Of a stretch of DNA of 64,000 bases, positions 1,627 to 52,600 are shown one piece after another; position 1 is the first letter of the stretch, and each line of letters opens with the position of its first letter. The stretch comes from an uncultured Anaerolineae bacterium (GTDB taxonomy: Bacteria; Chloroflexota; Anaerolineae; J036; Brachytrichaceae), in assembly GCA_937927775.1 (NCBI GenBank), contig CALBEF010000013.1:52079-116078 (forward strand), given 5' to 3'. Made by a program: the position numbers and the translations under genes. A model generated the notes under the pieces. It saw only the letters and a program-made list of their open reading frames with translations. It did no database searches and had not been told where the DNA came from.

Positions 1627-1655
1627 CAATCACTCAATGACTCAATGGCTCAACC
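1627..1655. repeat. 8-mer array, TCAATGAC family (nuoK-nuoL spacer)
   Basis: CAATCACTCAATGACTCAATGGCTCAACC. Confidence 0.8.
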
Positions 1656-19841: not shown

Positions 19842-19904
19842 CGGGCCATTGGGGCATCGAGCCATTGGGGCATCGCCCAATCGCTCAATCAATCACTCAA
19901 TCAC
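19831..19904. repeat. 8-mer-type array (CCATTGGGGCATCGAG / CAATCRCT units) spanning the biotinyl-carrier gene stop and the M23 gene start
   Basis: GATTGAGTCATCGGGCCATTGGGGCATCGAGCCATTGGGGCATCGCCCAATCGCTCAATCAATCACTCAATCAC. Confidence 0.75.
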
Positions 19905-28868: not shown

Positions 28869-30491
28869 TTATCCGCCGCCCGACGCCAGCCCAGCAATGG
28901 CGCGGCGGGCATCCTGCTCATCCACCTCACTGGTGATGAATGCGTCGCCGGGCGCGCGCAGCAGGACGAAGCGCACTTTTCCGCCGCACTTCTTCTTGTC
29001 CGATTGCATCAGGCGCCACACGGCATCGACATCGACCGCCGGCAGCGACACCGGCAGTCCGGCGCGCGACAGCGCATTGGTGACTGCCTCGACCAGATCC
29101 GCGCCACACACGCCCAACCTTTGGCCCAGACACATGGCGCACACCATGCCCAGCGACACAGCCTGACCGTGCTTGATAGCGAAATTGCTCCACGCTTCGA
29201 TGCCATGTCCGAAGGTGTGGCCCAGATTCAACAACGCCCGCCGGCCCCGCTCGAACGGGTCTTCCTCCACCACGTCGCGCTTCAGCAGAATCGCGTCGCG
29301 CAGAGATCGTGCGAGTGATGCGCGGAGTTCAGGATTCGCCGTCAATTGCCAATCGTCAATCGTCAATTGCGCGATGCGCTCCCACGCCTCGCCCCCGCGC
29401 AACAGCGCCGCTTTGACAATCTCGGCGTAGCCGCATTGCAACTCGACGGCGGGCAGCGATTGAAGCAGCGCCTGATCCATGATGACAATGTCTGGCTGCT
29501 TGAACGCGCCGACCAGGTTCTTGCCGAACGGTGTGTCCACACCCACTTTGCCGCCAATGCTCGAGTCGGCCATGGCCAGCAACGAAGTCGGAATCTGCGC
29601 AAAAGAGACCCCGCGCATGAACGTGGCAGCGGCGAAGCCGGCCACGTCGCCCACCACGCCCCCGCCCAGCGCAATCACCGCGCCATTGCGCTCCAGTCCG
29701 TTCGCGGCAAACGCCTGATACATGTCCTCGACCGAGCGCAGGGTTTTGTGGGTTTCGCCGGCCGGCATGAGATGAATAAAGCTGGCGAGACCGGCCCGGC
29801 TCAGCGCGCGTTGCAGCCGCCCGGCGTACAACGGCCCCACCTCGCTGTCCGACACAATGGCCAGCGGCGACAACCAGCCGCGCGGCGCCAGCGCAAACCC
29901 CGCCTGGTCGATCAGCCCCTCGCCCATCACGATGTCGTACTGGCCGGCGGGATGGCGCACCGCAATGCGCTCCTGTTCGGCGCGGTAGATGTCCAGCGCG
30001 CACTGCGCCGCCTCTTCGGGGCTGCGGTGCGTAGTGTCGAGGTGATAGTGCAGTTCGGCGTAGGCCGGCGCGCGCGCTTTGAGCAACTGCGCCACGCGGT
30101 CGTGGATGTGTTCGCCCGGCTGTGTGGCGCGCAGCAGGGGGCGCGTAGAGGCGTCCACACGGCGCAGGATCGCTTCCGGCGAGGCGGTCAGACAGAGCGT
30201 GACGCCGGCCCGCAACAGCGCCGCGCGGTTGGCCGGGTCCACGATCATGCCGCCGCCGGTGGCGATGACAATCCGCTCGCGCCCGATCAATTCGCGCGCC
30301 AGCGCCGTCTCCAGCGCGCGGAAATGCGCTTCTCCCATCTGATCGAAGAGCTGCGGGATGGTCAATCCGGCGCGGCGTTCGATCTCGGCGTCGGTATCGA
30401 TGAACTCGTAGCCCAGGCGTTGAGCCACGATCTGGCCGATGGTGGTTTTGCCGGCGCCCATGAAGCCGGCGAGGATGAGCGGTCTAGTCAT
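28869..30491 (-). CDS. aroKB: Bifunctional shikimate kinase / 3-dehydroquinate synthase (AroK-AroB fusion)
   Basis: N-terminus MTRPLILAGFMGAGKTTIGQIVAQRLGYEFIDTD (AroK P-loop). C-terminus GGGVVGDVAGFAAATFMRGVSFAQIPTSLLAMADSSIGGKVGVD (AroB). Start ATG 30491 overlaps the aroC stop by 8 nt. Confidence 0.9.
   Translation of the reverse strand: MTRPLILAGFMGAGKTTIGQIVAQRLGYEFIDTDAEIERRAGLTIPQLFDQMGEAHFRALETALARELIGRERIVIATGGGMIVDPANRAALLRAGVTLCLTASPEAILRRVDASTRPLLRATQPGEHIHDRVAQLLKARAPAYAELHYHLDTTHRSPEEAAQCALDIYRAEQERIAVRHPAGQYDIVMGEGLIDQAGFALAPRGWLSPLAIVSDSEVGPLYAGRLQRALSRAGLASFIHLMPAGETHKTLRSVEDMYQAFAANGLERNGAVIALGGGVVGDVAGFAAATFMRGVSFAQIPTSLLAMADSSIGGKVGVDTPFGKNLVGAFKQPDIVIMDQALLQSLPAVELQCGYAEIVKAALLRGGEAWERIAQLTIDDWQLTANPELRASLARSLRDAILLKRDVVEEDPFERGRRALLNLGHTFGHGIEAWSNFAIKHGQAVSLGMVCAMCLGQRLGVCGADLVEAVTNALSRAGLPVSLPAVDVDAVWRLMQSDKKKCGGKVRFVLLRAPGDAFITSEVDEQDARRAIAGLASGGG
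29341..29370. repeat. ATTGACG-family array inside aroK-aroB
   Basis: GTCAATTGCCAATCGTCAATCGTCAATTGC. Translated on the minus strand as QLTIDDWQLT, with TGA positions replaced by TGG. Confidence 0.8.
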
Positions 30492-31683
30492 ATCCAAATC
30501 GCCACGGCGTGTTGTCCATGCGCAGCGCGTCCAGCCGCAGCCGGCGCAGCGCCTCAAAGCGCGGGCGCATTTCGTCAATCGAGTCGCCGCCCAGTTTCTC
30601 CAGCAGCGCGTCGGCCAGCACGATGCACAGCATGGCTTCGACGATGGGCACGGCGCGCGGAACCTGGCAGAAGTCGCTGCGCTCGTACTGTGTGGCCGCC
30701 GGCGCGCCGGTTGCCAGATCGACCGACTGCAGGGGGGTGAGGGTGGTGGCGATCGGCTTGAGGGCGGCGCGCACGACGATCGGCGCGCCGTTGGTGATGC
30801 CGCCCTCCAGCCCGCCGGCGTGGTTGCTGGTCTGGCGAATCTCGCCATCTTCGACCATCAGTTGATCCTGAACGTGTGTGCCGGGGCGCAGCGTCTCGGC
30901 GAAGCCGTCGCCGATCTCAACGCCTTTCATGGCGTGAATGCTCATCACGGCGGCAGCGATGCGCGCCGACAGCCGGCGATCCCAGTGCACGTGGCTGCCC
31001 AGGCCGGGCGGGACGTTCAGCGCCACGCATTCGATCACACCGCCCAGCGTGTCCTTTGCCTGCATGATCTGGCGAATGGCCTCGCGCATGCGCTCGGCGG
31101 TTGCGGGGTCGTAGCAGCGCACATCAGAGGCTTCGGCGGCGCGGAAACGCTCCAGATAATCCACCCCCTCAACCTTACCAACCTGCCCAACCTGACCAAT
31201 TCCCTCTGTCGACACCTCCCCAATGCTGACCACATACCCGCCTGCCAGAATGCCGAATTCGGCGAGCAGCTTGCGGCAGGCTGCGCCGACCGCTACGCGC
31301 ATGGTGGTCTCGCGGGCCGAGGCGCGCTCCAGCGCCAGGCGCAGCTCGCGGTAGCCGTATTTGACGGCGCCGGTCAGATCGGCGTGGCCGGGGCGCGGAA
31401 TCGTCATCGGCGCGATGTCGCGCTCGCGCCATTTGACATGATCGAGGTTCTCGACCACGAAGGCAATCGGGCCGCCGGTGGTTTTGCCGGCCATCACGCC
31501 GGCGGTGATGCGGGCGTGGTCGCGCTCGATCTTCATGCGCCCCCCGCTGCCAAAGCCCTGCTGCCTGCGCGCCAGGTCTGCGTCGATGTCGGCGGATGAC
31601 AACGGCAGGCCGGCCGGCATGCCTTCCAGAATGGCCGTGAGCGAGGGGCCGTGCGATTCGCCGGCGGTGAGAAATCGGATCAT
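30484..31683 (-). CDS. aroC: Chorismate synthase
   Basis: MIRFLTAGESHGPSLTAILEGMPAGL...GRSSARETTMRVAVGA-like core. Contains an in-frame 9-mer-repeat insertion (GQVGQVGKV). Confidence 0.95.
   Translation of the reverse strand: MIRFLTAGESHGPSLTAILEGMPAGLPLSSADIDADLARRQQGFGSGGRMKIERDHARITAGVMAGKTTGGPIAFVVENLDHVKWRERDIAPMTIPRPGHADLTGAVKYGYRELRLALERASARETTMRVAVGAACRKLLAEFGILAGGYVVSIGEVSTEGIGQVGQVGKVEGVDYLERFRAAEASDVRCYDPATAERMREAIRQIMQAKDTLGGVIECVALNVPPGLGSHVHWDRRLSARIAAAVMSIHAMKGVEIGDGFAETLRPGTHVQDQLMVEDGEIRQTSNHAGGLEGGITNGAPIVVRAALKPIATTLTPLQSVDLATGAPAATQYERSDFCQVPRAVPIVEAMLCIVLADALLEKLGGDSIDEMRPRFEALRRLRLDALRMDNTPWRFGYD
31171..31200. repeat. 9-mer array (AACCTNMCC family) inside aroC
   Basis: AACCTTACC AACCTGCCC AACCTGACC AAT, translated on the minus strand as IGQVGQVGKV. 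Confidence 0.8.
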
Positions 31684-31710
31684 TGCCTGATTGGGTGATC
31701 GGGCCACTGG

Positions 31711-31768
31711 GCGATTGACTCAATGACTCAATGACTCAATCGCCCAACGGCTCAATGCCTGAATGGCC
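31711..31768. repeat. 8-mer array, TCAATGAC family (pepC-aroC spacer)
   Basis: GCGATTGAC TCAATGAC TCAATGAC TCAATCGC CCAACGGC TCAATGCC TGAATGGC. Confidence 0.85.
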
Positions 31769-33126
31769 TAATTCGCAATCGCCAGCGCGCCCATCGGGTC
31801 CCACGGCGGCAACCGCACCGGCTCCGTTTCCAGAATCGGCAGCAGCTCCTGTGGCACGTACTGCTTCTCGACGGCGATCTCGTACATGTACTCGTCGAAC
31901 CAGGCGTCGCTCATCACCAGAAAGCCCTTGTCGCCCAGCTTGTCGCCCCAGCTATTTTCGACGCGCCACTTCACCGGCCGGCCCTGTTCGTCCAGATCGA
32001 CGCCGGTGAAGACCATGGCGTGCGTCATCACGCTCTGGCCGTACTCAACGCGCTCGGCTTTGTCTGCGCGGAATGGCGCGCCGTACACCGAGGCGTAGTC
32101 GTACAACCGGGTGTGCAAAATGCCCAGATCGCGCTCCAGCATCTTGCCCACATCGCAGCCGAACCAGACCGGCTTGCCGTCCGTGATCTGTTTGACCGCA
32201 GCCTGCTTGAACACCGGCAGCGGCACATTCAGATATCGGATGATGTCGCCTTCGGCCACATTGCCCAGGTACGAGATGGTGTACAGCGTATTAAACGGCT
32301 TGTCTGCGGTCGGGCAATGGATCAGGCAAGTCATTGAATCCAGGTCGAACTGAACATAGCGGTTGAAGAACTGCTGCGGCGTGATGACGCCATCGCGGTG
32401 GAACTGGTCGTCCTTGTCGCGCCATTGCCAGTAGAACTCGCGCGGCGGCTGGCCGAGATGGATCGTCAACATGCGGTAGATGTCGGACATCATGTCCACC
32501 TTGCGCGCCTGCAGATCGGCCATGCCGGCGCCCTGCGCGCTCATGCGCCGCAACTCGGCGGCGTCTTCGCGCAGCCGGTTGGTGATCAGCGCGGTCATGA
32601 CCCACGAATTGCTGCTGCTTTCCGTCTCCGGCATAAAGCTCTTTGGCACAACCCCGTATTTCTTCACCAGGTTGACAAACATATCCCATTGCCCGCCGTC
32701 CTGAATCGGGTTTTGCAACAGGAACATGATCAGTCGGCCATCCGTTGGCTCGCTCAGCGTGTCGAGGATGCTCTCCAGGAAATAGTTGGCCTTCTCCAGC
32801 TTGTCCCAGAACATCATGTAGCTCTGAGACAACTCGAACTTCTCCACGTTCAGGCGCTTCATGGCCTCGACGCGGAACAGGTTCAGGCCGGCAAACAGCC
32901 AGCATCGCCCGCTGCGCTCCTGGGCCGTCGCCTCGTTGCTTTTCAGCATGTGCGAGTACACGTGGTTGACGCTGGCGACGACTTCGCGGTTGAGCGCCAC
33001 CGCATGCACCGGGTTTTTGGTGACGGCGTTCATCGCCAGGCGGTTTTTGGGGTCACGCTCGAACTCTGACTGGTACCGTTGCAAGTGTTCGGGCGTGAGG
33101 GGACCTGCTGCGTGTGTGGACTTCAT
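31768..33126 (-). CDS. pepC: Aminopeptidase C / bleomycin hydrolase (peptidase C1B)
   Basis: QERSGRCWLFAGLN (catalytic Cys context), ...HAMVFTGVD...WRVENSWG. GGAGG Shine-Dalgarno upstream of ATG 33126. Confidence 0.88.
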   Translation of the reverse strand: MKSTHAAGPLTPEHLQRYQSEFERDPKNRLAMNAVTKNPVHAVALNREVVASVNHVYSHMLKSNEATAQERSGRCWLFAGLNLFRVEAMKRLNVEKFELSQSYMMFWDKLEKANYFLESILDTLSEPTDGRLIMFLLQNPIQDGGQWDMFVNLVKKYGVVPKSFMPETESSSNSWVMTALITNRLREDAAELRRMSAQGAGMADLQARKVDMMSDIYRMLTIHLGQPPREFYWQWRDKDDQFHRDGVITPQQFFNRYVQFDLDSMTCLIHCPTADKPFNTLYTISYLGNVAEGDIIRYLNVPLPVFKQAAVKQITDGKPVWFGCDVGKMLERDLGILHTRLYDYASVYGAPFRADKAERVEYGQSVMTHAMVFTGVDLDEQGRPVKWRVENSWGDKLGDKGFLVMSDAWFDEYMYEIAVEKQYVPQELLPILETEPVRLPPWDPMGALAIAN

Positions 33127-33156
33127 CGCTATCCTCCAAAAAAGTTGATTGAGAGA

Positions 33157-34089
33157 TTACGTGGGTTGGGCCGGCGCGTCAAGCGGTGGTGACGTTTGCA
33201 AAGCGCGGCGCATGACGCTGGCGACTTCGGCGATGGAAAGCGGCAGCGTCAGGCCGGCTGTCCACAGCGCAAAGGCGGCTGCGCCCTGCTCGGCCAACAT
33301 GCCGATCCCGCCGATCACGCGCAGGCCGGCGGCTTCCGCCTGCCGCATCAGGCGCGTCACACGCGGCTTGTACACCAGGTCGTACAGCACGGCGTCGCGC
33401 GGGAAGGGTATCCCCTTGATCCAGGGCGTGCTGTCTGCGTTGGGTTCCATGCCGGCTGACGTGCAATTCACAATCAATCGCGCGCCTTGCTCGGCCCGGC
33501 TCAATCCATTTGCGTCCAGCGCCTGCGCAGACAAACACGCGTTGGGGAACACGGCGCGCATGTCCTCGACCAGCCGCTGCGCGCGGGCTGCGTCGCGGTT
33601 GACGACGGTGACCGACCATCCACTGTGCGCCAGCGCGTACACCACGCCGCGCGCCGACCCGCCTGCGCCGAGCGCCAGCGCCCGGCGCTCCTCCGGCCCC
33701 GCGCCTGACTCAATCGCCACGCCGTGCCAGCGCAGATCGTTGAGGAAGCCGACCCAGTCTGTGTTCTCGCCGATCAGGCGGGGCCGGTCATCGGCAACTT
33801 TGACGATGGTGTTGACCGCGCCGATGGCCTCGGCGTGCCGGCTGATCTCGTCCAGGAACGGCATGACGTTGACCTTGTGCGGCACGGTCACGTTGGCGCC
33901 GGCGATGCCGGTGTCGTCGCGGATGCGCCACACGCGCTCGGCCAGCTCCTCCAGTGGCGTGTGCCATAGCTCGTATTGCCAGTCCAGGCCGGCGGCGGCG
34001 AATGCCGCGCCCTGCATACGCGGCGACGCGCTGTGCGCCACGGGAAAGCCGATCAACCCGATGCGTTTCACGCGACTGCCTCCGGGCAT
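33157..34089 (-). CDS. aroE: Shikimate dehydrogenase
   Basis: IGLIGFPVAHSASPRMQGAAF...NVTVPHK...GAVNT...LGAGGSARGVVYAL are AroE motifs. Confidence 0.9.
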   Translation of the reverse strand: MPGGSRVKRIGLIGFPVAHSASPRMQGAAFAAAGLDWQYELWHTPLEELAERVWRIRDDTGIAGANVTVPHKVNVMPFLDEISRHAEAIGAVNTIVKVADDRPRLIGENTDWVGFLNDLRWHGVAIESGAGPEERRALALGAGGSARGVVYALAHSGWSVTVVNRDAARAQRLVEDMRAVFPNACLSAQALDANGLSRAEQGARLIVNCTSAGMEPNADSTPWIKGIPFPRDAVLYDLVYKPRVTRLMRQAEAAGLRVIGGIGMLAEQGAAAFALWTAGLTLPLSIAEVASVMRRALQTSPPLDAPAQPT

Positions 34090-35405
34090 AGCGCCGCCAG
34101 GTCGTTGAAGAATCCGGGATATGTCTTGCTAACACACTCGGCGCCGGTGATGACCGTTTCGCCGTCGGCCACCAGCGCGGCCACGGCCAGCGCCATCGCC
34201 ATGCGATGATCGCCCCGGCCATCCACGACTGCGCCGCGCAGGCGGGTCGGCCCCTCCACGATGAATCCGTCGGGCGTGGCTTCGATGCGCGCGCCCATCT
34301 TGCGCAGCTCTTCCACCAGTCCGTCGATGCGATTGCTCTCCTTCACGCGCAACTCTTCCGCGTCGCGCACTACGGTCGTTCCCTGCGCCTGGGTGGCGGC
34401 CACAGCGAAGACGGGGAACTCGTCGATCATGCGCGCCACCTGTTCGCCGCCGACGGTGACGCCGCGCAGCGCGGCGGATGAAATGGTCAGGTTGCCGGCC
34501 GGCTCATTGCCCGCGTCCGGCGCGCGCGCTTCGGTTTCAATCTGCGCGCCCATGTCCCGCAGGGCGTCAAGCAGGCCGGTGCGCGTGGGGTTCAGGCCGA
34601 CATCGGTCAGCCGCAGCCGGGCCTGGGGATGCGCGCAGCCGGCGACGAGAAAGAACGCCGCCGAGGAAAAGTCCGCCGGCACACGCAGGTCAACCGGCTG
34701 AAGAGCGCGCGACGGGGGCGTGACATGATTGACGATTGACGATTGGCGGTTAAGGGGGGACTGGCTGCTCGCGTCCGTTGTGTGCCGCGCAATCGGGACG
34801 CCCATGGCAGCCATCAACCGCTCGGTGTGGTCGCGGGTGACGACCGGCTCCTCAATGCGCGTGTCGCCTTCGGCGTACAGCGCGGCCAGCAGCAGCGCCG
34901 ACTTGATCTGCGCGCTGGCGATCGGCAGGGTGTAGGCGATGCCGCGCAGCGCGGCGGGTTCGATGCGCAACGGAGCGCAGCCGGCGGTGTCGGTGATGCG
35001 CGCGCCCATCCGTGCCAGCGGCTCGGTGACGCGGCGCATGGGCCGCCGGCGCAGTTGCGCGCTGCCATCCAGGATGCTGCCGAACGATTGACCGGCCAAC
35101 AAGCCGGCCAGCAGGCGCATCGTCGTGCCCGATGAATCACAGTACAGGGTGTCGCGCGCCGGTGTCAATCCGCGCAGCCCGCGCCCATGCAGCGTGAGCG
35201 TTTGTTCGCGCTGCTCGATGACGATACCCAGTTGGCGCATGATATTGATCGCCGCGCGCGTGTCGTCGCTGTCCAGATATTCCTCGACGCGGCATACGCC
35301 ATCGGCAAGACTGCCCAGCAACACGCCGCGCACGGTCATGCTGCGGTCGCTCGGCGCGCGCAGGCTGCCGGCGAGTTGGCGGGGCGGATGGATGGATTGG
35401 TCCAT
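34068..35405 (-). CDS. aroA: 3-phosphoshikimate 1-carboxyvinyltransferase (EPSP synthase)
   Basis: LRAPSDRSMTVRGVLLGSLA...LYCDSSGTTMRLLAGLLA...RVKESNRI...DHRMAMALAVAAL. Contains an in-frame heptamer-repeat insertion (NRQSSIVN). Confidence 0.95.
   Translation of the reverse strand: MDQSIHPPRQLAGSLRAPSDRSMTVRGVLLGSLADGVCRVEEYLDSDDTRAAINIMRQLGIVIEQREQTLTLHGRGLRGLTPARDTLYCDSSGTTMRLLAGLLAGQSFGSILDGSAQLRRRPMRRVTEPLARMGARITDTAGCAPLRIEPAALRGIAYTLPIASAQIKSALLLAALYAEGDTRIEEPVVTRDHTERLMAAMGVPIARHTTDASSQSPLNRQSSIVNHVTPPSRALQPVDLRVPADFSSAAFFLVAGCAHPQARLRLTDVGLNPTRTGLLDALRDMGAQIETEARAPDAGNEPAGNLTISSAALRGVTVGGEQVARMIDEFPVFAVAATQAQGTTVVRDAEELRVKESNRIDGLVEELRKMGARIEATPDGFIVEGPTRLRGAVVDGRGDHRMAMALAVAALVADGETVITGAECVSKTYPGFFNDLAALCPEAVA
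34725..34749. repeat. ATTGACG-family array inside aroA
   Basis: ATGATTGACGATTGACGATTGGCGG, translated on the minus strand as NRQSSIVNH. Confidence 0.8.
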
Positions 35406-35408
35406 TTT

Positions 35409-35487
35409 GTGATTGTGTGATTGAGCGATTGACGATTGTATGATTTGGTGATTGGCTCAATGACCCAATGACTCAATCGCCCAATCC
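35409..35487. repeat. Mixed GATTG-type heptamer and 8-mer arrays (aroA-tyrA spacer)
   Basis: GTGATTGTGTGATTGAGCGATTGACGATTGTATGATTTGGTGATTGGCTCAATGACCCAATGACTCAATCGCCCAATCC. Confidence 0.8.
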
Positions 35488-35490
35488 CTT

Positions 35491-36423
35491 TCAGAAGTGC
35501 GCTTTGCGGGTTTGGGCAGCCGCAGTCAGATAGGCGCGCAGACCGGCTTCGTCCCTGCGCTCGATCAGGGCCGTGAGCTGGTCGAGCGAGAACTGAAAGT
35601 CGCGGATCGCGCCGGTGACGGCGTCTGCGTTGGTCAACAGGATATCGATCATCATGCCCACATCGCTGGCGGCCACCCGGCTGGTGTCGCGGAAGCCGCT
35701 GGCGGTCACCCGCCACAGCGCGGGGTCGTTCAGGCCGGCCTGTTCCGCCGCCGTGACCAGCGCAACCGCGAGCGCGTAGGGCAGATGGCTGGCACAGGCC
35801 ACCAGCATGTCATGCCGGGCAGGGTCAAGCTCAAGGGTAATGGCCCCGGCGTTCTCTGCCAGCGTCCTGACAGCCGCGAGCGCGTCGTCGTCGGTGCGCG
35901 CCGTGCGCGTGAGAATCCAGGTCTTGCCGCGATACAACGCGGCGTCGGCAGCGTCGAGGCCGGGCACCTCTTTGCCGCACATGGGGTGCGACCCGACGGC
36001 CCGCAGGTGATCGGGCAACTGATTCATGGCGCGGATGATCTCGGACTTGGTGCTGCCCAGGTCAGTGATGACGGCGCCGGCCTTGGCCGCGCCGGCCAGA
36101 TTGCCGATCTGCGCGATGATCGTGCGCACCGGCGTGGCAAGAACGACAATGTCCGCCTCGCTTACGCCTTCCGCCAACTCGGTTGTGCCGGCGTCGATGA
36201 TGCCCCGCCCCAGCGCCTCGCGGAGGGTCTCGGCGCGCCGGGCCACGCCGGTGATGCGGGCGTAGCGACCGCGCACGGCCAGCGCAAGCGACGCTCCCAT
36301 CAGGCCCAGCCCGACGATACAAATAGAGGAGTGGCGATTGACGATTGACGGTTGGCGATTGACGATTGACGATTGGCTCACACGCTGATTGTACGGGACG
36401 CTGCTTTCACACGCTGCGGTCAA
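35491..36423 (-). CDS. tyrA: Prephenate dehydrogenase
   Basis: [17 protein letters not shown] (Rossmann), ...GSHPMCG... The true start is uncertain (ATG 36423 or GTG 36381). Either way the N-terminus is encoded by the ATTGACG-family array ([15 protein letters not shown]). Confidence 0.85.
36333..36376. repeat. ATTGACG-family array at the tyrA 5' end
   Basis: GGCGATTGACGATTGACGGTTGGCGATTGACGATTGACGATTGG, minus-strand sense [15 protein letters not shown]. Confidence 0.85.
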
Positions 36424-37438
36424 CGGCTTCGGCCACCCGGCGCACCTGCGCCACCAGGTCGGCGTAGCGGGCCGGCGTCAGCGACTGGGCGCCGTCGGAC
36501 AACGCCTGCTCCGGGTGTGGATGCACTTCGACGATCAGGCCGTCGGCGCCGGCGGCAATGGCGGCTTTGGAGACGGCGGTCACGTACTCCCATTTGCCCG
36601 TGCCGTGGCTGGGATCGACGATCACCGGCAGGTGGCTGAGCTGCTTCAGCACCGGCACGGCGTTGATGTCGAGCGTGTTGCGTGTGTAGGTCTCGAAGGT
36701 GCGGATGCCCCGCTCGCACAGCATGACGTTGTAGTTGCCCTGCGACATGATGTACTCGGCGGCCATCAGCAGCTCCTCAAGCGTGCTCGACATGCCGCGC
36801 TTGAGCAGCACCGGCTTCATGCTCGCGCCAACAGCCGTCAGCAGCGGGTAGTTCTGCATGTTGCGCGCGCCGATTTGAAGGATGTCGGCGTAACCGGCCA
36901 CAAGGTTCACCTGCTCCGTCGCCATCACTTCCGTCACAATTGCAAGGCCGTATTCGGCGCGCGCCTCGGCCAGCCACTTCAGCGCGTCTTCGCCGTAGCC
37001 CTGAAAGGAGTAGGGCGAGGTGCGCGGCTTGTAAGCGCCGCCGCGCAGGATGCTGGCGCCGGCTTCCTTCACCATGCGCGCGCTCTCCATGATCTGCTCG
37101 CGGCTCTCGGCGGAACACGGCCCGGCCATCAGCGCGATCGCCGCCGGCGGCCCGCCGATCGGCACCGTGTGCCCGTTGACGCGGATGGGAATGATCGTGT
37201 CGTCCTTTTTGAAATCACGGCTGGCCAGTTTGAAGGGGCGCAGGATGGGCACCACGCGCTCCACGCCGCTGAGCAGCTCAAACACATCGCGGTTTACCGG
37301 CCGGTCATTTCCCACCACGCCGATGATGGTGCGCTCCTCGCCCTGAGACAGGTGCGCTTTCAGGCCGATCTCTTCGATTCGTTTTACGACTGCCCCGACT
37401 TCGGCTGTCGAGGCGTTGGATTTCATGATGATGACCAT
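36407..37438 (-). CDS. aroF: 3-deoxy-7-phosphoheptulonate (DAHP) synthase, type I-beta with N-terminal ferredoxin-like regulatory domain (paralog A)
   Basis: [44 protein letters not shown] (FL domain), then ...[11 protein letters not shown]...[17 protein letters not shown]...VDPSH. Confidence 0.9.
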
Positions 37439-37440
37439 AG

Positions 37441-37520
37441 GATTTGGTGATTTGTCCATCTGGCCATTGAGTCATTGCCCAATCGCCAAATGGCTCAATG
37501 ACACGATGGCTAAATGGTTC
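37441..37520. repeat. 8-mer-family arrays in inverted arrangement (spacer between the two DAHP synthase genes)
   Basis: ...GGCCATTGAGTCATTGCCCAATCGCCAAATGGCTCAATGACACGATGGCTAAATGG... Confidence 0.7.
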
Positions 37521-38538
37521 GGTCCATCGCCTCGGCAATGCGCCGCGACTGCCGCACCAGATCGGCAAACGCTTCGGGCGTGAGCGACTGCGCGCCGTCG
37601 GACATGGCCTGGGTTGGGTCGGGGTGCACTTCGACGATCAGGCCATCGGCGCCGGCGGCAATGGCGGCCCGGCTGGCGGCGATGACGTACTCGGACTTGC
37701 CGGTGGCATGGCTGGGATCGACCACAACCGGGAGGTGACTGAGCTTCTTGAGCACCGGCACGGCGTTGATGTCGAGCGTGTTGCGGGTGTAGGTCTCGAA
37801 GGTGCGGATGCCGCGCTCGCACAGCATGACGTTGTAGTTCCCGCGCGACATGATGTACTCGGCGGCCATCAGCAACTCTTCGATGGTGTTGGCCATGCCG
37901 CGCTTGAGCAGCACCGGCTTCATGCTGGCGCCGGCGGCGTTGAGCAGCGCAAAGTTCTGCATGTTGCGCGCGCCGATCTGAAGCACGTTGGCGTATTGCG
38001 CCACCAGCGGCACCTGTTCGGGCGACATCACTTCGGTCACAACGGCCAGGCCGGTCTGCTCGCGCGCCTCGGCCATCCATTGCAGCGCCTTTTCGCCGTA
38101 GCCCTGGAATGAATACGGCGAGGTGCGCGGCTTGTACGCGCCACCACGCAGCCCTTTGGCGCCGGCCTCCTTCACCGCGTGCGCCGCCTCCAGCACCTGC
38201 TCGCGGCTTTCGGCGGAACACGGGCCGGCGATGATGATGATTTCACCGTTGCCCATTTTGACGCCATGCCCGTTCATGCCAATCAGCGTGACAGCCGTGT
38301 TTTCCTTCTTGAAGTCGCGGCTGGCGAGTTTGAACGGCTTGAGAATAGGCAGCGTCGCCTCGACGCCCGGCGATGTCTCGAAGATGGTGCGATCCACCGG
38401 CCGGTCGTTGCCGACCACGCCGATGACCACCCGCTCTTCGCCGTAGATTGGATGGGCCTGAAAACCCAGCGACTCGATGCGGGCCATGATGGCGCCGACT
38501 TCTTTGGCAGTTGCGCCTGCCTTCATGATGATGACCAT
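37510..38538 (-). CDS. aroF: DAHP synthase, type I-beta with ferredoxin-like domain (paralog B)
   Basis: [44 protein letters not shown]...[11 protein letters not shown]...VDPSH. AGGAG Shine-Dalgarno 6 nt upstream. Tandem paralog of 36407..37438. Confidence 0.9.
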
Positions 38539-38550
38539 CTCACACTCCTG

Positions 38551-38605
38551 GATTGAGTCATTGGGCGATTGAGCCATTGAGTCATTGAGTCATTGACCAA
38601 ATGGC
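38551..38605. repeat. 8-mer array, GTCATTGA family (aroH / DAHP synthase spacer)
   Basis: GATTGAGTCATTGGGCGATTGAGCCATTGAGTCATTGAGTCATTGACCAAATGGC. Confidence 0.85.
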
Positions 38606-38633: not shown

Positions 38634-39002
38634 TCAGCCTTCCTGAATGCGGTCGGGGCGCAGTTTTTCCGCGCCCCGAATATAGACATGCTTTATCTGG
38701 TTAGCTGGCTTGTCTGTGTTCCAGTGGATCAGGATGCGCACGCAGCGCGCCAGGCCGTGCGGCACATCCATTTCGTGCATACACATGAGCGCGGCGTCTG
38801 TCCAGCCAAGCTGGCGCGCGGCGATGGCAGGGTACTCCGCGTTCAAGTCGCGCGTTGTGCTGAAGAAGGCGCTGGCGACATCTTCGGCGCAAATGCCGTT
38901 TGCCTCGACCAGTTTCTCCAGCAACTCGCGGGTTGCCTCAATGATCGCTGTCTTTGTGTTCCCGGTCGCTACTGTCGCGCCGCGCACGCCGCGTAATTCC
39001 AT
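38634..39002 (-). CDS. aroH: Chorismate mutase, AroH class
   Basis: [36 protein letters not shown]...[14 protein letters not shown]...[10 protein letters not shown] is the AroH signature. GGAGG Shine-Dalgarno upstream of ATG 39002. Confidence 0.9.
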
Positions 39003-39061
39003 ATGCCGATAGTCCTCCTATGCGGTGAATCGCTCATCCACTCGGTCTTCTGCCATCACAA

Positions 39062-39099
39062 CAACAAAAAGAGCGCGGGGCTTACTGCTCCGCGCTCTC
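39062..39099 (-). terminator. Intrinsic terminator / attenuator hairpin in the aro operon leader
   Basis: Minus strand reads GAGAGCGCGG-AGCAGTAAGCC-CCGCGCTCT followed by TTTTGTTGT. It lies between the leader mini-ORF stop (39122) and the aroH Shine-Dalgarno. Confidence 0.65.
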
Positions 39100-39121
39100 G
39101 ATTCCCTGAAATCCGTCTACT

Positions 39122-39229
39122 TCAACTGGTCATTCCCTTCGTAGACCCGCGTGGGAGTAAGCTGCTTTTGCCATCGGCAAAGTAGCCATAAAACCAGAAG
39201 TAGCTAAACGAGAAAGCTCCGCGAGTCAT
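39122..39229 (-). CDS. Candidate aromatic-rich leader peptide (35 aa) of the aro operon
   Basis: Minus strand ATG ACT CGC GGA GCT TTC TCG TTT AGC TAC TTC TGG TTT TAT GGC TAC TTT ... TGA = MTRGAFSFSYFWFYGYFADGKSSLLPRGSTKGMTS. This is the 3' part of track ORF 39122..39322. 9 of 12 consecutive codons are F, Y or W. Confidence 0.55.
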   Translation of the reverse strand: MTRGAFSFSYFWFYGYFADGKSSLLPRGSTKGMTS

Positions 39230-39244
39230 TGCTGAGTTGGCGCG

Positions 39245-39273
39245 ATGGTAATTCATGCCGGGTGGCCTGTCAA
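39245..39273 (-). promoter_or_regulatory. Candidate promoter of the aro operon leader
   Basis: Minus strand TTGACA (39273..39268), 17 nt, TACCAT (39250..39245). It is preceded by the A-rich tandem AAACTGGAAAACTGGAAAAA (UP-element-like, 39300..39281). The predicted TSS is ~9 nt before the leader ATG. Confidence 0.45.
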
Positions 39274-39320
39274 GAGGCATTTTTCCAGTTTTCCAGTTTG
39301 GGCGTTTTACAATCCCGGCC

Positions 39321-39956
39321 ATGCCGCGCTACATCGCCCTGTTCAAGCCTTATGGTGTGCTGTCGTCGTTCACCCACGAGTCACGCGAGTTTTCTGGATC
39401 GCCTGACCACGCTGCAAAGCGCACGCTCAGCGAATTCGGCCTGCCCCCCGGCGTCTACGCAGCCGGCCGGCTGGATTACGACAGTGAAGGTCTGCTTATC
39501 CTGAGCGATGACGGCAGCTTCATCCACCGCTTGACCGATCCACGCCACAAGCTGCCCAAAACTTATTGGGCGCAGGTCGAAGGCGAGCCGACTGAATCCC
39601 AACTGAGCCAGTTGCGGCGTGGTGTGATCGTGCGCGGCTATCGCACGCGGCCCTGTCAGGCGCGTGTTCTGGCAGCCGGCATCCTGCCAGGCGAGTCGAA
39701 CGGGCCGTTTCCTCGGTTGCGGCTGGCCGGTAAGCCCGTCGAACTGCCCCCACGCGACAAGCCGGTGACGCCGCATGGCCCCACCGCCTGGATCGAGCTG
39801 ATCCTGACCGAGGGCAGGAAACGCCAGGTTCGCCACATGACGGCCAGCGTCGATTTGCCCACCTTGCGCCTGGTTCGCGTGGCGATTGGCCGGCTGACCA
39901 TCGCAGGCTTGTTGCCCGGCCAGTGGCGCACTGTCGCGCCGCAGGATATTCTGTAG
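39321..39956 (+). CDS. Pseudouridine synthase (RsuA/RluE family)
   Basis: MPRYIALFKPYGVLSSFT...AGRLDYDSEGLLILSDDG...KTYWAQV...GRKRQVR are RsuA/RluB/E-family motifs. Confidence 0.85.
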   Translation: MPRYIALFKPYGVLSSFTHESREFSGSPDHAAKRTLSEFGLPPGVYAAGRLDYDSEGLLILSDDGSFIHRLTDPRHKLPKTYWAQVEGEPTESQLSQLRRGVIVRGYRTRPCQARVLAAGILPGESNGPFPRLRLAGKPVELPPRDKPVTPHGPTAWIELILTEGRKRQVRHMTASVDLPTLRLVRVAIGRLTIAGLLPGQWRTVAPQDIL

Positions 39957-48753: not shown

Positions 48754-48768
48754 CGGGGCGCGCCGCAC

Positions 48769-48859
48769 GTAGTGCGTGTTGCGTAGTGCGTGTTGCGTAG
48801 TGCGTATTACGTAGTGCGTATTACGTATTGCGTATTGCGTATTGCGCATTACGTATTGG
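48769..48859. repeat. 13-unit heptamer array (GTAGTGC / GTGTTGC / GTATTAC / GTATTGC)
   Basis: 91 nt = 13 x 7, between the response-regulator stop (48753) and the convergent HEPN gene. The last units encode the HEPN C-terminus and stop. Confidence 0.9.
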
Positions 48860-49656: not shown

Positions 49657-52600
49657 ATGCCGACTGCCAATAGTTCCCTCCAACAGGCGCTCGCCCGACA
49701 CGTTTCCGGCGAAGTGCGCTTTGACGACGCGATGCGCGTGCTCTACAGCACTGACGCCAGCAATTATCAGGTGTGGCCGCAGGGCGTGGTGTTGCCCAGG
49801 ACTGCCGACGATGTCATTGCGGCCGTCAACCTATGCGCCGAACATGGCGCGCCGATCATCCCGCGCGGCGGGGGCAGCGGGCTGTGCGGCCAGGCCATCG
49901 GCCCCGGCGTCATCCTCGATCTCTCCAAATACATGAATCAGGCGCTGGAGGTGGATGCGGCAGGCCGGCGCGCGCATGTTCAGCCCGGCATGGTGCTGCA
50001 ACAGTTGAACAAGCAACTCGCGCCCATGAAGTTGCAGTTCGGCCCCGATCCGGCCAGCGGCGAGCGAGCGGTCATCGGCGGCATCATCGGCACAAACGCC
50101 ACCGGCGCGCACTCCATCCGCCACGGCATGACTGCCGACCATGTGATTGCCATGCGCTGCGTGCTGGCCGATGGCACGCTGGTCGAGTTTGGCCCGCGCG
50201 AGAACGGCCCACAGGGCAAACTCGAACAGGCCATCGCCGACATCGTGCGCCGCCATGAGGCCGTTATCCGCCGCGATTTTCCGCAGGTGTGGCGCCGGGC
50301 CAGCGGCTACAACGTGGACTTTATCGCTGAAATGCTGGCCTGGGATCCGACCCATCCAGAGGCCGCGCTGCTCGACGCCAGCCGCAACCGGCAGTCGCTG
50401 AACTACCAGTCGCATCTCGACATGATCAGCCGGTTCAACCTGTCGCCGCTGATTGTGGGATCAGAGGGCACGCTGGCCGTGGTGCTGGACGCCACGCTGA
50501 AGCTGATGCCGAAGCCGGCGCGCACCGGCCTGGTGGTGTGCGCGTTCAACTCGCTGTCCGATGCGATGGACGCTACGCCGGCCATGTTGACCAGCGATCC
50601 CTCCGCGCTGGAGCTGATGGATGGCTTGATGGCGCGCCTGGCGCGCGGCCTGCCGGAGCAGGCGCGCAAGATGACCTGGCTGAGCGGCGAGCCGGACGCC
50701 GTGTTGATCGTGGAGTTCGACGGCGAAACAGAAAATGAAGTGAAGGCCGGCTTCGAGCGGCTGAAGCGCGTGCTGGCGCAGGAGCGCATCCCCTGCTCGG
50801 TCGCCGAGTTGATCGACCCGCAGGCGCAGGCCGACGTGTGGGCCGTGCGCAAGATCGGGCTGGGCATTCTGCTGAGCATCCGCAGCGACCACAAGCCGAT
50901 TTCGGTGATCGAAGATGTGGCGGTGCCGGTGGCGCGGCTGGGCGAATATGTGCGCCGGATGCGCGAGGTGTTCGCCCGCCATAAAACGGATGGCGCGTTC
51001 TACGCCCACGCCAGCGCCGGCGTGCTGCATGTGCGTCCGCTGGTCAACCTCAAGACGCTGGAAGGGCTGCGCGCCATGGAGGACATCGGCCTGAGCGCGC
51101 TGGCGCTGTGCCGCGAGATGGGCGGCGCGCTCAGCGGCGAGCACGGCGACGGCTACGAGCGCACGCGCTGGAACGAGGCGCTGTACGGCAAAGCGGTGTA
51201 TCAGGCGTTTTGCGAGATCAAGGACGCCTTCGACCCGCGCGGTCTGTTGAATCCCGGCAAGAAAGTGCGCGGCGAAGCAATGGAAGACTTCATGCGCATC
51301 GGGCCATGGCTGAAGATGAAGCCGTATGCAAGCGTGTTCACCTATCAGCAGGACGGCTCGTTTGCCGGCCTGGTGGAGCAGTGCAACGGCAACGGCATCT
51401 GTCGCAAATTAGACGGCGGCGTGATGTGCCCGTCGTACCGCGCCACGCTCGATGAAACCCACAGCACGCGCGGGCGGGCCAACCTGCTGCGCCATTTCAT
51501 CACCGATCGCGCGACGTGGAAACGAAACGACCGCCAGCCGGCAGAAAAGGCCGGCGCTCAATCGTCAATCGCTCAATCGTCAATCGCTCAATCGTCAATC
51601 GTCAATCCTTCTGACGTTCCCGTTATTTCGATGGACGACGTGAAATCCGCGCTGTCGTTGTGTCTGTCCTGCAAAGCCTGCCACACCGAATGCCCGTCCA
51701 GCGTGGACATGTCGAAGCTCAAGAGCGACTTTCTGGAGCACTACTACGCCGAGCGCGGCAAGCCGTTGCGCGCGTGGATGTTCGGCCACTTTGCCAATCT
51801 CAGCGCGCTGGCCGCGCCGTTTGCGCCGCTGGTCAACCGGCTGTTTGCGTTGCCGCCGGCCAAGTGGGCGATGCGCCGTATCGGGATCACCGATCAGCGT
51901 CCGTTCCCCCATTTCGCCTCGCAGACTTTCAAGGCGTGGTGGCGGCGTCAGGAGACAGGAGACAGGAGTCAGGAGTCAGACGAGTCGCCAATCCCCAATC
52001 CCCAATCCAAAATCAAAAATCCAAAATCGGTGGTGTTGTTTGCCGACACATTCGCCAACTACAACCACCCGCATGTGGCGCAGCGGGCGGTGGCATTGCT
52101 GGAGGCAGCCGGCTATTGCGTGATTGTGCCGGACTGCAAGTGCTGCGGGCGCACGCTGGTGTCGCAGGGCCAGCCGGGCGAGGTTGTGCCGCTCGCCAGA
52201 CACAACATCAGGACGCTGGCGCCGTTGGCGAAGCAGGGCCTGCCGATTCTGGGTCTGGAGCCGAGCTGCATCGCCATGTTCAAGGATGACTATCTGGACA
52301 TGCTGCCCGGCGATGACACTACAGCCGTGGCCGACGCCTTCATGGGCGTCGAGGACTTTCTGGCGCGCGAGGCAGCCGGCGGCGAGCGCGGCTTCAGCCT
52401 GAGCCGGCGCTTCCCGAACAACACCGATGTGCTGGTTCACGGCCACTGCCACCAGAAGGCCGGCTGGGGCACGCAGGGCATGAAGCAGGCCATGACAATG
52501 GCCGGCTATCGCGTGAAAGAGGTCGATTCGACGTGCTGCGGCATGGCCGGCGCGTTCGGCTATGAAGCCGAGCATTTTGAGGTGTCGCGCAAGGTCGGCG

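Follow-up and report, generated by a model that had tools for sequence, protein, structure and literature searches.

Architecture of the leader region

The locus described here lies on the minus strand of a 64 kb stretch of DNA (hereafter the window), where aroH, encoding a type I chorismate mutase of 122 amino acids (Pfam PF07736, E 2e-45), heads a nine-gene aromatic operon and is preceded by a promoter, a short open reading frame (ORF) rich in Phe, Tyr and Trp codons, and a terminator hairpin (Table 1). A preliminary examination of the bare sequence (the sequence-only reading) had listed the promoter, the 35-codon ORF, its run of 12 codons of which nine are aromatic, and the terminator ahead of aroH, all of which match base for base, and had likened their layout to attenuators of the trpL/pheL type. 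AroH homologues place the window in Chloroflexota, the closest named genome by this protein being that of Candidatus Roseilinea mizusawaensis (89% identity). Throughout, WIN denotes the window's own leader, and L001, L002 and similar labels denote related aroH loci.

The leader promoter is the best sigma-70-type match of the region, agreeing at 10 of 12 positions in our promoter scan, and would place the start of transcription near 39238, leaving a 5' untranslated region (UTR) of about 8-9 nt that is devoid of a Shine-Dalgarno sequence. A tandem repeat, CTGGAAAA CTGGAAAA, abuts the -35 box at 39299..39281 (minus strand) and is found as a single copy in L001. When all six frames of the 64 kb were scanned, the aromatic run of the leader ORF was the sole stretch with nine aromatic residues in 12, the runner-up among independent stretches (34204..34169) reaching 6/12, and Phe, Tyr and Trp together account for 6.5% of the codons in the window's genes. 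The density of the run is not a product of chance.

Beginning 22 nt past the leader stop codon, the terminator hairpin GAGAGCGCGG-AGCAGUAAGCC-CCGCGCUCU (39099..39069) is followed by the tail TTTGTTGTT, and its calculated energy of -21.8 kcal/mol (z -3.6) was equalled by none of 200 shuffles. A purine-rich motif, AGGGAAUC or GGAAAC, occurs 1-9 nt 5' of the terminator 5' arm in many Anaerolineae-type leaders, including the window (39110..39100, minus strand), L001, L005, L009, L017, L088, L090, L091 and L092. In the window this motif folds as a small hairpin, GAUUUCAGGGAAUC; it could act as a pause element or as an alternative partner of the UUUCUC in the first Phe codons.

Table 1. Features of the aromatic leader and operon, in window coordinates.
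Feature	Position	Strand	Basis and remarks
-35 hexamer TTGACA	39268..39273	-	Promoter scan; same in L001 and L002; TTGACA-like boxes 5' of 27 related leaders
-10 hexamer TACCAT	39245..39250	-	17 nt spacer from -35; 15 nt before leader ATG
Leader ORF MTRGAFSFSYFWFYGYFADGKSSLLPRGSTKGMTS	39122..39229	-	ATG at 39229; 35 codons plus TGA at 39124..39122
Regulatory codon run	39179..39214	-	12 codons: 5 Phe, 3 Tyr, 1 Trp (UGG 39196..39194)
Region 1 GACUCGCGGAGCU, codons 1-5	39215..39227	-	Predicted 5' strand of anti-antiterminator; partner is region 2
Region 2 AGCUUACUCCCACGCGGGUCU, codons 23-29	39143..39163	-	Predicted to pair with region 1, or with terminator 5' arm and loop (antiterminator)
Region 3 GAGAGCGCGGAGCAGUAA	39082..39099	-	Terminator 5' arm and loop
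Region 4 GCCCCGCGCUCUU	39069..39081	-	Terminator 3' arm
U-rich tail UUUGUUGUU	39060..39068	-	Directly 3' of terminator hairpin
aroH, including Shine-Dalgarno	38634..39019	-	AGGAGG 39019..39014; ATG 39002; first gene after terminator
Operon genes after aroH	28869..38577	-	Pfam; nine genes with aroH
DAHP synthase with FXD domain, copy 1	38577..37510	-	Pfam
DAHP synthase with FXD domain, copy 2	37459..36407	-	Pfam
Prephenate dehydrogenase	about 36423..35491	-	Pfam
EPSP synthase	35405..34068	-	Pfam
Shikimate dehydrogenase	34089..33157	-	Pfam
Peptidase_C1_2 protein	33126..31768	-	Pfam, E 1e-179; 452 amino acids
Chorismate synthase	31707..30484	-	Pfam
aroK-aroB fusion (shikimate kinase/dehydroquinate synthase)	about 30491..28869	-	Pfam

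Conservation of the leader across Chloroflexota

The sequence-only reading had left as a check whether an aromatic mini-ORF and terminator recur at the aroH loci of relatives. The 600 nt 5' of aroH were scanned at 80 loci drawn from a one-genome-per-species collection, a short ORF with at least six aromatic residues in 10 and a terminator behind it counting as a leader. Such a leader is present at 43 of the 80 loci, all of them in Chloroflexota (Anaerolineae, Thermoflexales, Aggregatilineales, Ardenticatenaceae, Caldilineales, Roseiflexaceae, Chloroflexaceae and Oscillochloris), with runs such as YFYFYFY, FWFWYF and FFFFSFYYFY, and four more loci carry weaker runs of 4-5 aromatic codons. All 12 additional loci with close AroH relatives also have the leader, bringing the total to about 55 loci, while among the 80 loci scanned no aromatic leader was found at those of Planctomycetota, Desulfobacterota and Holophagales.

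The trpL/pheL-type layout is thus real, and it is kept together with the aroH-DAHP synthase pair across Chloroflexota: a DAHP synthase gene lies directly 3' of aroH at 43/43 leader loci, and aroH loci without an adjoining DAHP synthase gene have no leader. Within 446 kb of locus sequence, 42 of the 59 aromatic-rich windows fall within 450 nt 5' of aroH on the same strand, a zone that makes up 4% of the sequence. A G+C-rich hairpin and a U-rich tract follow each of the 43 parsed leaders, and a comparison of 39 distinct leaders gives 94.2% pairing in the terminator stem, with double compensatory changes in 10 of its 11 pairs, a level reached in 0/500 shuffles.

A different arrangement was seen at five high-GC, Dehalococcoidia-like Chloroflexota loci (L045, L046, L059, L063 and L068), where aroH and DAHP synthase are present without an aromatic run. 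These loci share a short GC-rich frame approximately 40-100 nt 5' of aroH, with a single UAU (Tyr) codon, a single UUU (Phe) codon or both, GGN coming next in each case, and with a stop codon at its end (e.g. ..AYGGGSRAGVFGPS and ..GVYGSGPLAGVFGR). The frame may represent a reduced leader peptide or, alternatively, an RNA motif, GGCCGGCGUCUUUGG.

Predicted alternative helices of the leader RNA

By eye, the sequence-only reading had found no convincing antiterminator. Folding and comparison now provide a candidate, which is supported by lineage-specific complementarity: the 3' segment of the leader ORF (region 2) is complementary to the 5' arm and loop of the terminator (region 3), not only in the window but also in leaders of the Roseiflexus/Chloroflexus type, where region 2 reads UGGUUGCUUCGCGUU and its partner GGCGUGGAGCAAC. 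Region 2 starts at a median of 17 nt past the last aromatic codon (12-22 nt in 35 of 43 leaders), a position that a ribosome stalled at the run is predicted to leave free, just past its leading edge. When nascent RNA was folded from that ribosome edge to the terminator loop, at least eight bases of region 3 paired upstream in the minimum-energy fold of 42 of the 43 leaders.

The specificity of these pairings was assessed by permuting partners between leaders, in alignment-free tests that did not fully control for G+C content and relatedness. Region 2 pairs with its cognate terminator 5' arm and loop at -18.6 kcal/mol, compared with -15.3 ± 0.44 kcal/mol for permuted partners (0/5000 permutations as good), and the longest loop complement to a leader's own region 2 averages 5.54 nt vs. 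4.68 ± 0.14 nt (0/10000 as high). Region 2 has a second candidate partner in the first codons of the ORF (region 1), with cognate and permuted energies of -15.3 and -13.5 ± 0.49 kcal/mol, respectively (1/5000 as good). In WIN, ORF nucleotides 3-15 pair with nucleotides 67-87 at -27.5 kcal/mol (z -2.14), and in Chloroflexia a recurrent peptide start, MQP (AUGCAACC), complements the GGUUGC of region 2. The pairing of regions 2 and 3 would also explain two otherwise puzzling observations, the conservation of terminator loops within lineages and that of peptide tails (e.g. DWLLRV).

Further support came from an alignment of 11 sequences of the window's own clade (A4). In this alignment, 92.7% of the cells of the 2:3 helix are paired, compared with 24-51% when the helix is slid along the sequence, and 97% of those of the 3:4 helix, the slid controls over the 1:2, 2:3 and 3:4 helices together spanning 24-72%. 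The 1:2 helix is 80% paired (24-43% when slid) and contains three pairs with double changes, a modest covariation that includes A-U to G-C and C-G to U-A exchanges between WIN and L002. A three-way covariation was also detected, in which an A-to-G change at column 144 (terminator 5' arm) in L002 is matched by U-to-C changes at column 91 (region 2) and column 169 (3' arm). Moreover, one Leu codon of region 2 is UUA in every leader of the clade, whereas in the window's genes only 4 of 595 Leu codons are UUA; we take this to indicate constraint on the RNA.

A candidate ribosome-mediated attenuator

We consider it likely that this leader is a classical four-segment, ribosome-mediated leader-peptide transcription attenuator of the nine-gene aromatic operon, acting on a near-leaderless mRNA. 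From the observed elements, their order, spacing, conservation and complementarities, we infer a start of transcription, translation of the ORF, ribosome stalling and a regulatory outcome that would proceed as follows. Transcription would begin a few bases 5' of the 35-codon ORF, producing a near-leaderless mRNA without a Shine-Dalgarno sequence. With ample charged Phe- and Tyr-tRNA (and probably Trp-tRNA), the ribosome would traverse the aromatic codons and region 2, region 1 would capture region 2 behind the passing ribosome, and the 3:4 terminator would form, halting RNA polymerase at the U-rich tract before aroH. When Phe- or Tyr-tRNA is scarce, the ribosome would stall within the regulatory run, covering or blocking region 1, with its front edge stopping just short of region 2, which in WIN begins approximately 16 nt past the last aromatic codon. 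The freed region 2 would then pair with the emerging terminator 5' arm and loop, the terminator would not form, and the whole operon would be transcribed.

Several observations weigh against this interpretation, in addition to the incomplete controls of the permutation tests. With its very short inferred 5' UTR and no Shine-Dalgarno sequence, the leader ORF is not assured of translation. The antiterminator of WIN is interrupted, consisting of a core (GCUUACU, 39162..39156, with AGUAAGC, 39086..39080), CGCG:CGCG and a few more pairs; the 2:3 duplex has an energy of -12.9 kcal/mol, with a z of -0.4 relative to shuffles and rank 19/39 among non-cognate terminators, and the nascent-RNA antiterminator fold (z +0.31) is no better than shuffles. 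As these thermodynamics are unremarkable, the support for the window's own antiterminator is comparative. In a broad MAFFT alignment of 39 sequences, the antiterminator columns were 71.9% paired vs. 70.3% in shuffles (34/500 as high), a weak signal that we attribute to the inconsistent alignment of region 2 by MAFFT. Most of the 2:3 helix does not vary within the window's clade, which makes for thin column covariation. Lastly, in this clade 20-25 nt separate the end of region 2 from the stop codon, as opposed to 1-5 nt in Chloroflexia, so that a terminating ribosome would leave region 2 uncovered; the off state would then have to depend on the transit of the ribosome and the recapture of region 2 by region 1.

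Amino acids probably sensed by the leader

According to the sequence-only reading, one peptide would sense all three aromatic amino acids. This is supported for Phe and Tyr, whose codons are universal in the runs, and only in part for Trp, whose codon is frequent without being universal. Summed over the family, the runs contain 127 Phe, 117 Tyr and 17 Trp codons. Trp is found in 15 of the 36 distinct runs, and the window's clade keeps it in 9 of its 11 leaders, the exceptions being L002, with CGG (Arg) at that position, and L092, which is without a Trp codon. These distributions suggest that Phe and Tyr are the conserved signals, and, because of the partial occurrence of its codon, Trp sensing is plausible here yet not a defining property of the element.

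A narrower version of the attenuator, in which only Phe and Tyr are sensed and the lone Trp codon is incidental, without a useful Trp response, strikes us as unlikely, although it deserves more weight than any other alternative. It would accommodate the limited spread of Trp among the family runs and its loss from L002 and L092, as well as the content of the operon, which combines the common pathway with chorismate mutase and prephenate dehydrogenase and in which Pfam searches identified no trp genes. In the aroR leader of Corynebacterium, only Phe limitation was effective (PMC11802643). Conversely, most leaders in the window's clade keep Trp, as do the Roseiflexus-type FWFWYF leaders, Trp synthesis is also fed by the common pathway, and a single hungry codon is able to stall a ribosome. 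An attenuator that responds to Phe, Tyr and, in this clade, plausibly Trp remains our preferred reading.

Possible translation of the leader ORF

The leader ORFs were examined for signs of coding. An in-frame ATG lies 3-12 codons before the run in about 30 of 45 leaders; in a minority the start is uncertain, the only in-frame ATG of about 10 leaders being 25-40 codons upstream of the run and six leaders beginning with GTG or TTG. The runs diverge widely in sequence between lineages yet remain composed of Phe, Tyr and Trp codons, with synonymous variation throughout the family (TTT 102, TTC 25, TAT 54, TAC 63). Among 11 distinct leaders of the clade, all indels within the ORF are multiples of three, whereas those past the stop codon are not. 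These patterns are signs of coding, and the leader ORF may well be translated even though it lacks a Shine-Dalgarno sequence.

Strong promoters (TTGACA, 17 nt, TAnnnT) were identified 5' of 27 leaders, and the distance from the -10 hexamer to the ATG is bimodal in the family, measuring either 7-15 nt or 30-39 nt. The shorter class would give leaderless or near-leaderless mRNAs, while the longer one would leave room for a ribosome-binding site. The near-leaderless start without a Shine-Dalgarno sequence, which the sequence-only reading had singled out as unusual, recurs in relatives: WIN, L001 and L002 all have a distance of 15 nt, with intervening sequences that differ and that lack a Shine-Dalgarno sequence in each case. 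The short spacing therefore looks like a conserved property.

Database searches returned little on the peptides themselves. Three leader peptides matched no family in NCBIfam and Pfam at E up to 10, and an exact look-up of ten leader peptides in a collection of 15 billion proteins found none of them present. A small ORF is occasionally called at related loci, where most gene calls show none. As a separate observation, GUAGAC or UAGAC recurs at or just past the leader stop codon (L062, L064, L074, L039 and WIN; e.g. UAA GUAGAC). The UAG that this sequence places out of frame in some leaders may serve as a reserve stop for ribosomes slipping on the U-rich Phe codons.

Should the ORF be an untranslated by-product, the U/A/C-rich tract might instead bind an RNA-binding protein or a ligand, following the logic of TRAP or PyrR, in a factor-dependent attenuator. 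The missing Shine-Dalgarno sequence would agree with such a scheme, as would the strong conservation, at the nucleotide level, of the block GGCUACUUC.GGUUUUA.GGCUACUUU within the clade and the preference for TTT, which accounts for 80% of the leader Phe codons while the genes prefer TTC (73%). Against it stand the start codon, the open frame and the stop near region 2, which are kept at most of the approximately 55 divergent loci (a minority having uncertain starts), together with the triplet indels, the run sequences that vary between lineages while remaining aromatic, and a run-to-region 2 distance that fits the leading edge of a ribosome. In addition, UAY is the only kind of in-frame UAN triplet in the runs, and the run of WIN contains a UAG out of frame, although the selection of open frames makes this argument partly circular. 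On balance, we judge factor-dependent control very unlikely.

Equally unlikely is the notion that the functional product is the short transcript ending at the terminator, or its peptide, acting in trans (a small RNA or micropeptide, like rnTrpL/peTrpL of Sinorhizobium), with control of the operon being secondary or absent. With a strong promoter and a strong terminator, an RNA of about 170 nt should indeed be plentiful, and there are precedents for attenuator RNAs and leader peptides working in trans. The linkage of the element to aroH-DAHP synthase is, however, strict, the peptide shows conservation only in its aromatic run and in the segments that pair as RNA, and a trans role would supplement cis attenuation, not replace it. 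A functional micropeptide as such was rejected, as conservation is limited to that run and those segments.

A chance ORF beside a constitutive or leaky terminator, or beside the terminator of a neighbouring gene, has nothing in its favour other than the weak thermodynamics of the window's own antiterminator and can practically be dismissed, given that the conservation and enrichment statistics exclude chance, that the hairpin has no T tract after it on the plus strand, and that the upstream pseudouridine synthase gene is divergent and needs no terminator there. T-boxes, riboswitches and the known leader families of Rfam were likewise ruled out: at gathering thresholds the whole window gave no match (including Trp_leader, His_leader, Leu_leader, Thr_leader, the leu/phe leader and T-box), and at E up to 10 the interval 38900..39400 gave only chance-level matches (E above 4) to unrelated families. 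Ribosome-mediated attenuation remains the most likely account of the leader.

The aromatic operon and its surroundings

Pfam searches reproduced the gene content that the sequence-only reading had listed for the operon and added one gene, encoding the Peptidase_C1_2 protein. Neither a dehydroquinase nor a prephenate dehydratase gene is among the nine. The genes overlap or are separated by gaps of at most 85 nt, no strong minus-strand terminator is predicted inside the operon, and the gene beyond 28869 is convergent; on these grounds, the nine genes likely form a single transcription unit. On the other side of the leader, the divergent pseudouridine synthase gene starts at 39321.

The tandem DAHP synthase paralogues each carry an N-terminal ferredoxin-like (FXD) regulatory domain, and DAHP synthase duplicates are also found 3' of aroH at several Anaerolineae loci. 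DAHP synthase of the Thermotoga type, with its N-terminal ferredoxin-like domain, is subject to feedback inhibition by Phe and Tyr. By analogy, the FXD domains on both enzymes of the window would add a layer of allosteric control.

Between the genes for shikimate dehydrogenase and chorismate synthase, the operon contains the Peptidase_C1_2 gene, whose product resembles aminopeptidase C/bleomycin hydrolase. The kilobase around this gene has a G+C content of 0.596, compared with 0.65-0.69 in the adjoining stretches, a drop suggestive of an insertion. Intergenic spacers, those inside the operon among them, are made up of degenerate 7-8 nt tandem repeats (CAATGACT, CGATTGA, GATTTTG and similar), at 38551..38596, 37465..37508, 35404..35485 and 31713..31765 and also at 1627..1653, 19824..19903, 36332..36377, 48768..48858, 51555..51607 and elsewhere. 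With up to two mismatches, CAATGACTCAATG occurs 19 times where 1.5 occurrences are expected. This short-tandem-repeat feature is genome-wide and recalls the heptamer repeats of cyanobacteria.

Significance and comparison with known attenuators

Our full-text literature searches found no published description of an aromatic attenuator in Chloroflexota, although an earlier computational mention is possible. Regulation of amino-acid synthesis in this deep-branching and mostly uncultured phylum has so far been ascribed mainly to T-boxes and riboswitches, and the leader described here would extend classical translation-coupled attenuation to it, with a single leader reading two or three amino acids and controlling the committed step of their shared pathway. 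On a broader view, for which we see about even odds, there may be a phylum-wide family of leader-peptide attenuators that share a leaderless or near-leaderless mini-ORF with region 1 in its first codons, integrate the charging of Phe-, Tyr- and often Trp-tRNA, and gate DAHP synthase together with chorismate mutase. Such a family might have a reduced, one-Tyr, one-Phe version in Dehalococcoidia-like lineages, and its terminated RNA might also act in trans. The approximately 55 natural variants offer material on how leaderless or Shine-Dalgarno-less initiation is coupled to RNA polymerase. Because annotation pipelines mostly miss these ORFs, a covariance model of the element would improve regulon prediction in metagenome-assembled Chloroflexota genomes.

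Among known systems, the T-box and TRAP control of aromatic genes in Firmicutes likewise operates by transcription attenuation through an alternative terminator and antiterminator. There, however, uncharged tRNA is sensed directly or a Trp-activated protein does the sensing, and no leader peptide is involved; T-boxes do occur in Chloroflexi (PMC3766115), though no T-box match was found here. Closer in design is uORFC-13-1, upstream of aroF in Acholeplasma, which was predicted by comparative genomics only (Brewer et al. 2021, PMC8632094). Like the window's leader, it is a Phe-codon upstream ORF directly before an intrinsic terminator and a DAHP synthase gene; unlike it, uORFC-13-1 has a ribosome-binding site and a run of U that encodes one or more Phe, and shows a narrow distribution (24 representatives) in another lineage.

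The nearest functional analogue is aroR of Corynebacterium glutamicum, a Phe/Tyr-codon leader that attenuates an operon beginning with DAHP synthase. It is a Phe-Tyr-Phe leader before the aroF (DAHP synthase) operon, is experimentally supported, and responds to limitation of Phe and not of Tyr (Neshat et al. 2014, via PMC11802643). Its single Phe-Tyr-Phe motif contrasts with the 9-11 aromatic codons of the Chloroflexota leaders, and it belongs to a different phylum; in the window, aroH comes first and the operon is much larger.

The classical counterparts are trpL-trpEDCBA and pheL-pheA of Escherichia coli (as well as the hisL, leuL, thrL and ilv leaders), which show the same order of promoter, short ORF with codons for the end product, and terminator. 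The trpL and pheL leaders also have the same four segments, 1:2 and 3:4 pairing signalling stop and 2:3 pairing signalling go. In the trp leader, the terminator is more stable than the antiterminator, and the ranking here is similar. The window's leader departs from trpL and pheL in that codons for two or three amino acids are intermingled in its run, that it is near-leaderless and lacks a Shine-Dalgarno sequence, and that its region 1 lies 5' of the regulatory codons instead of overlapping them. It also differs in what it would control, a unit in which the entry and branch-point enzymes are combined with most of the common pathway. While the proposed mechanism is thus a textbook one, what is noteworthy is its phylum-wide conservation, its mixed-codon sensor and its predicted Shine-Dalgarno-less initiation, combined with a region 1 that occupies the very start of the ORF.

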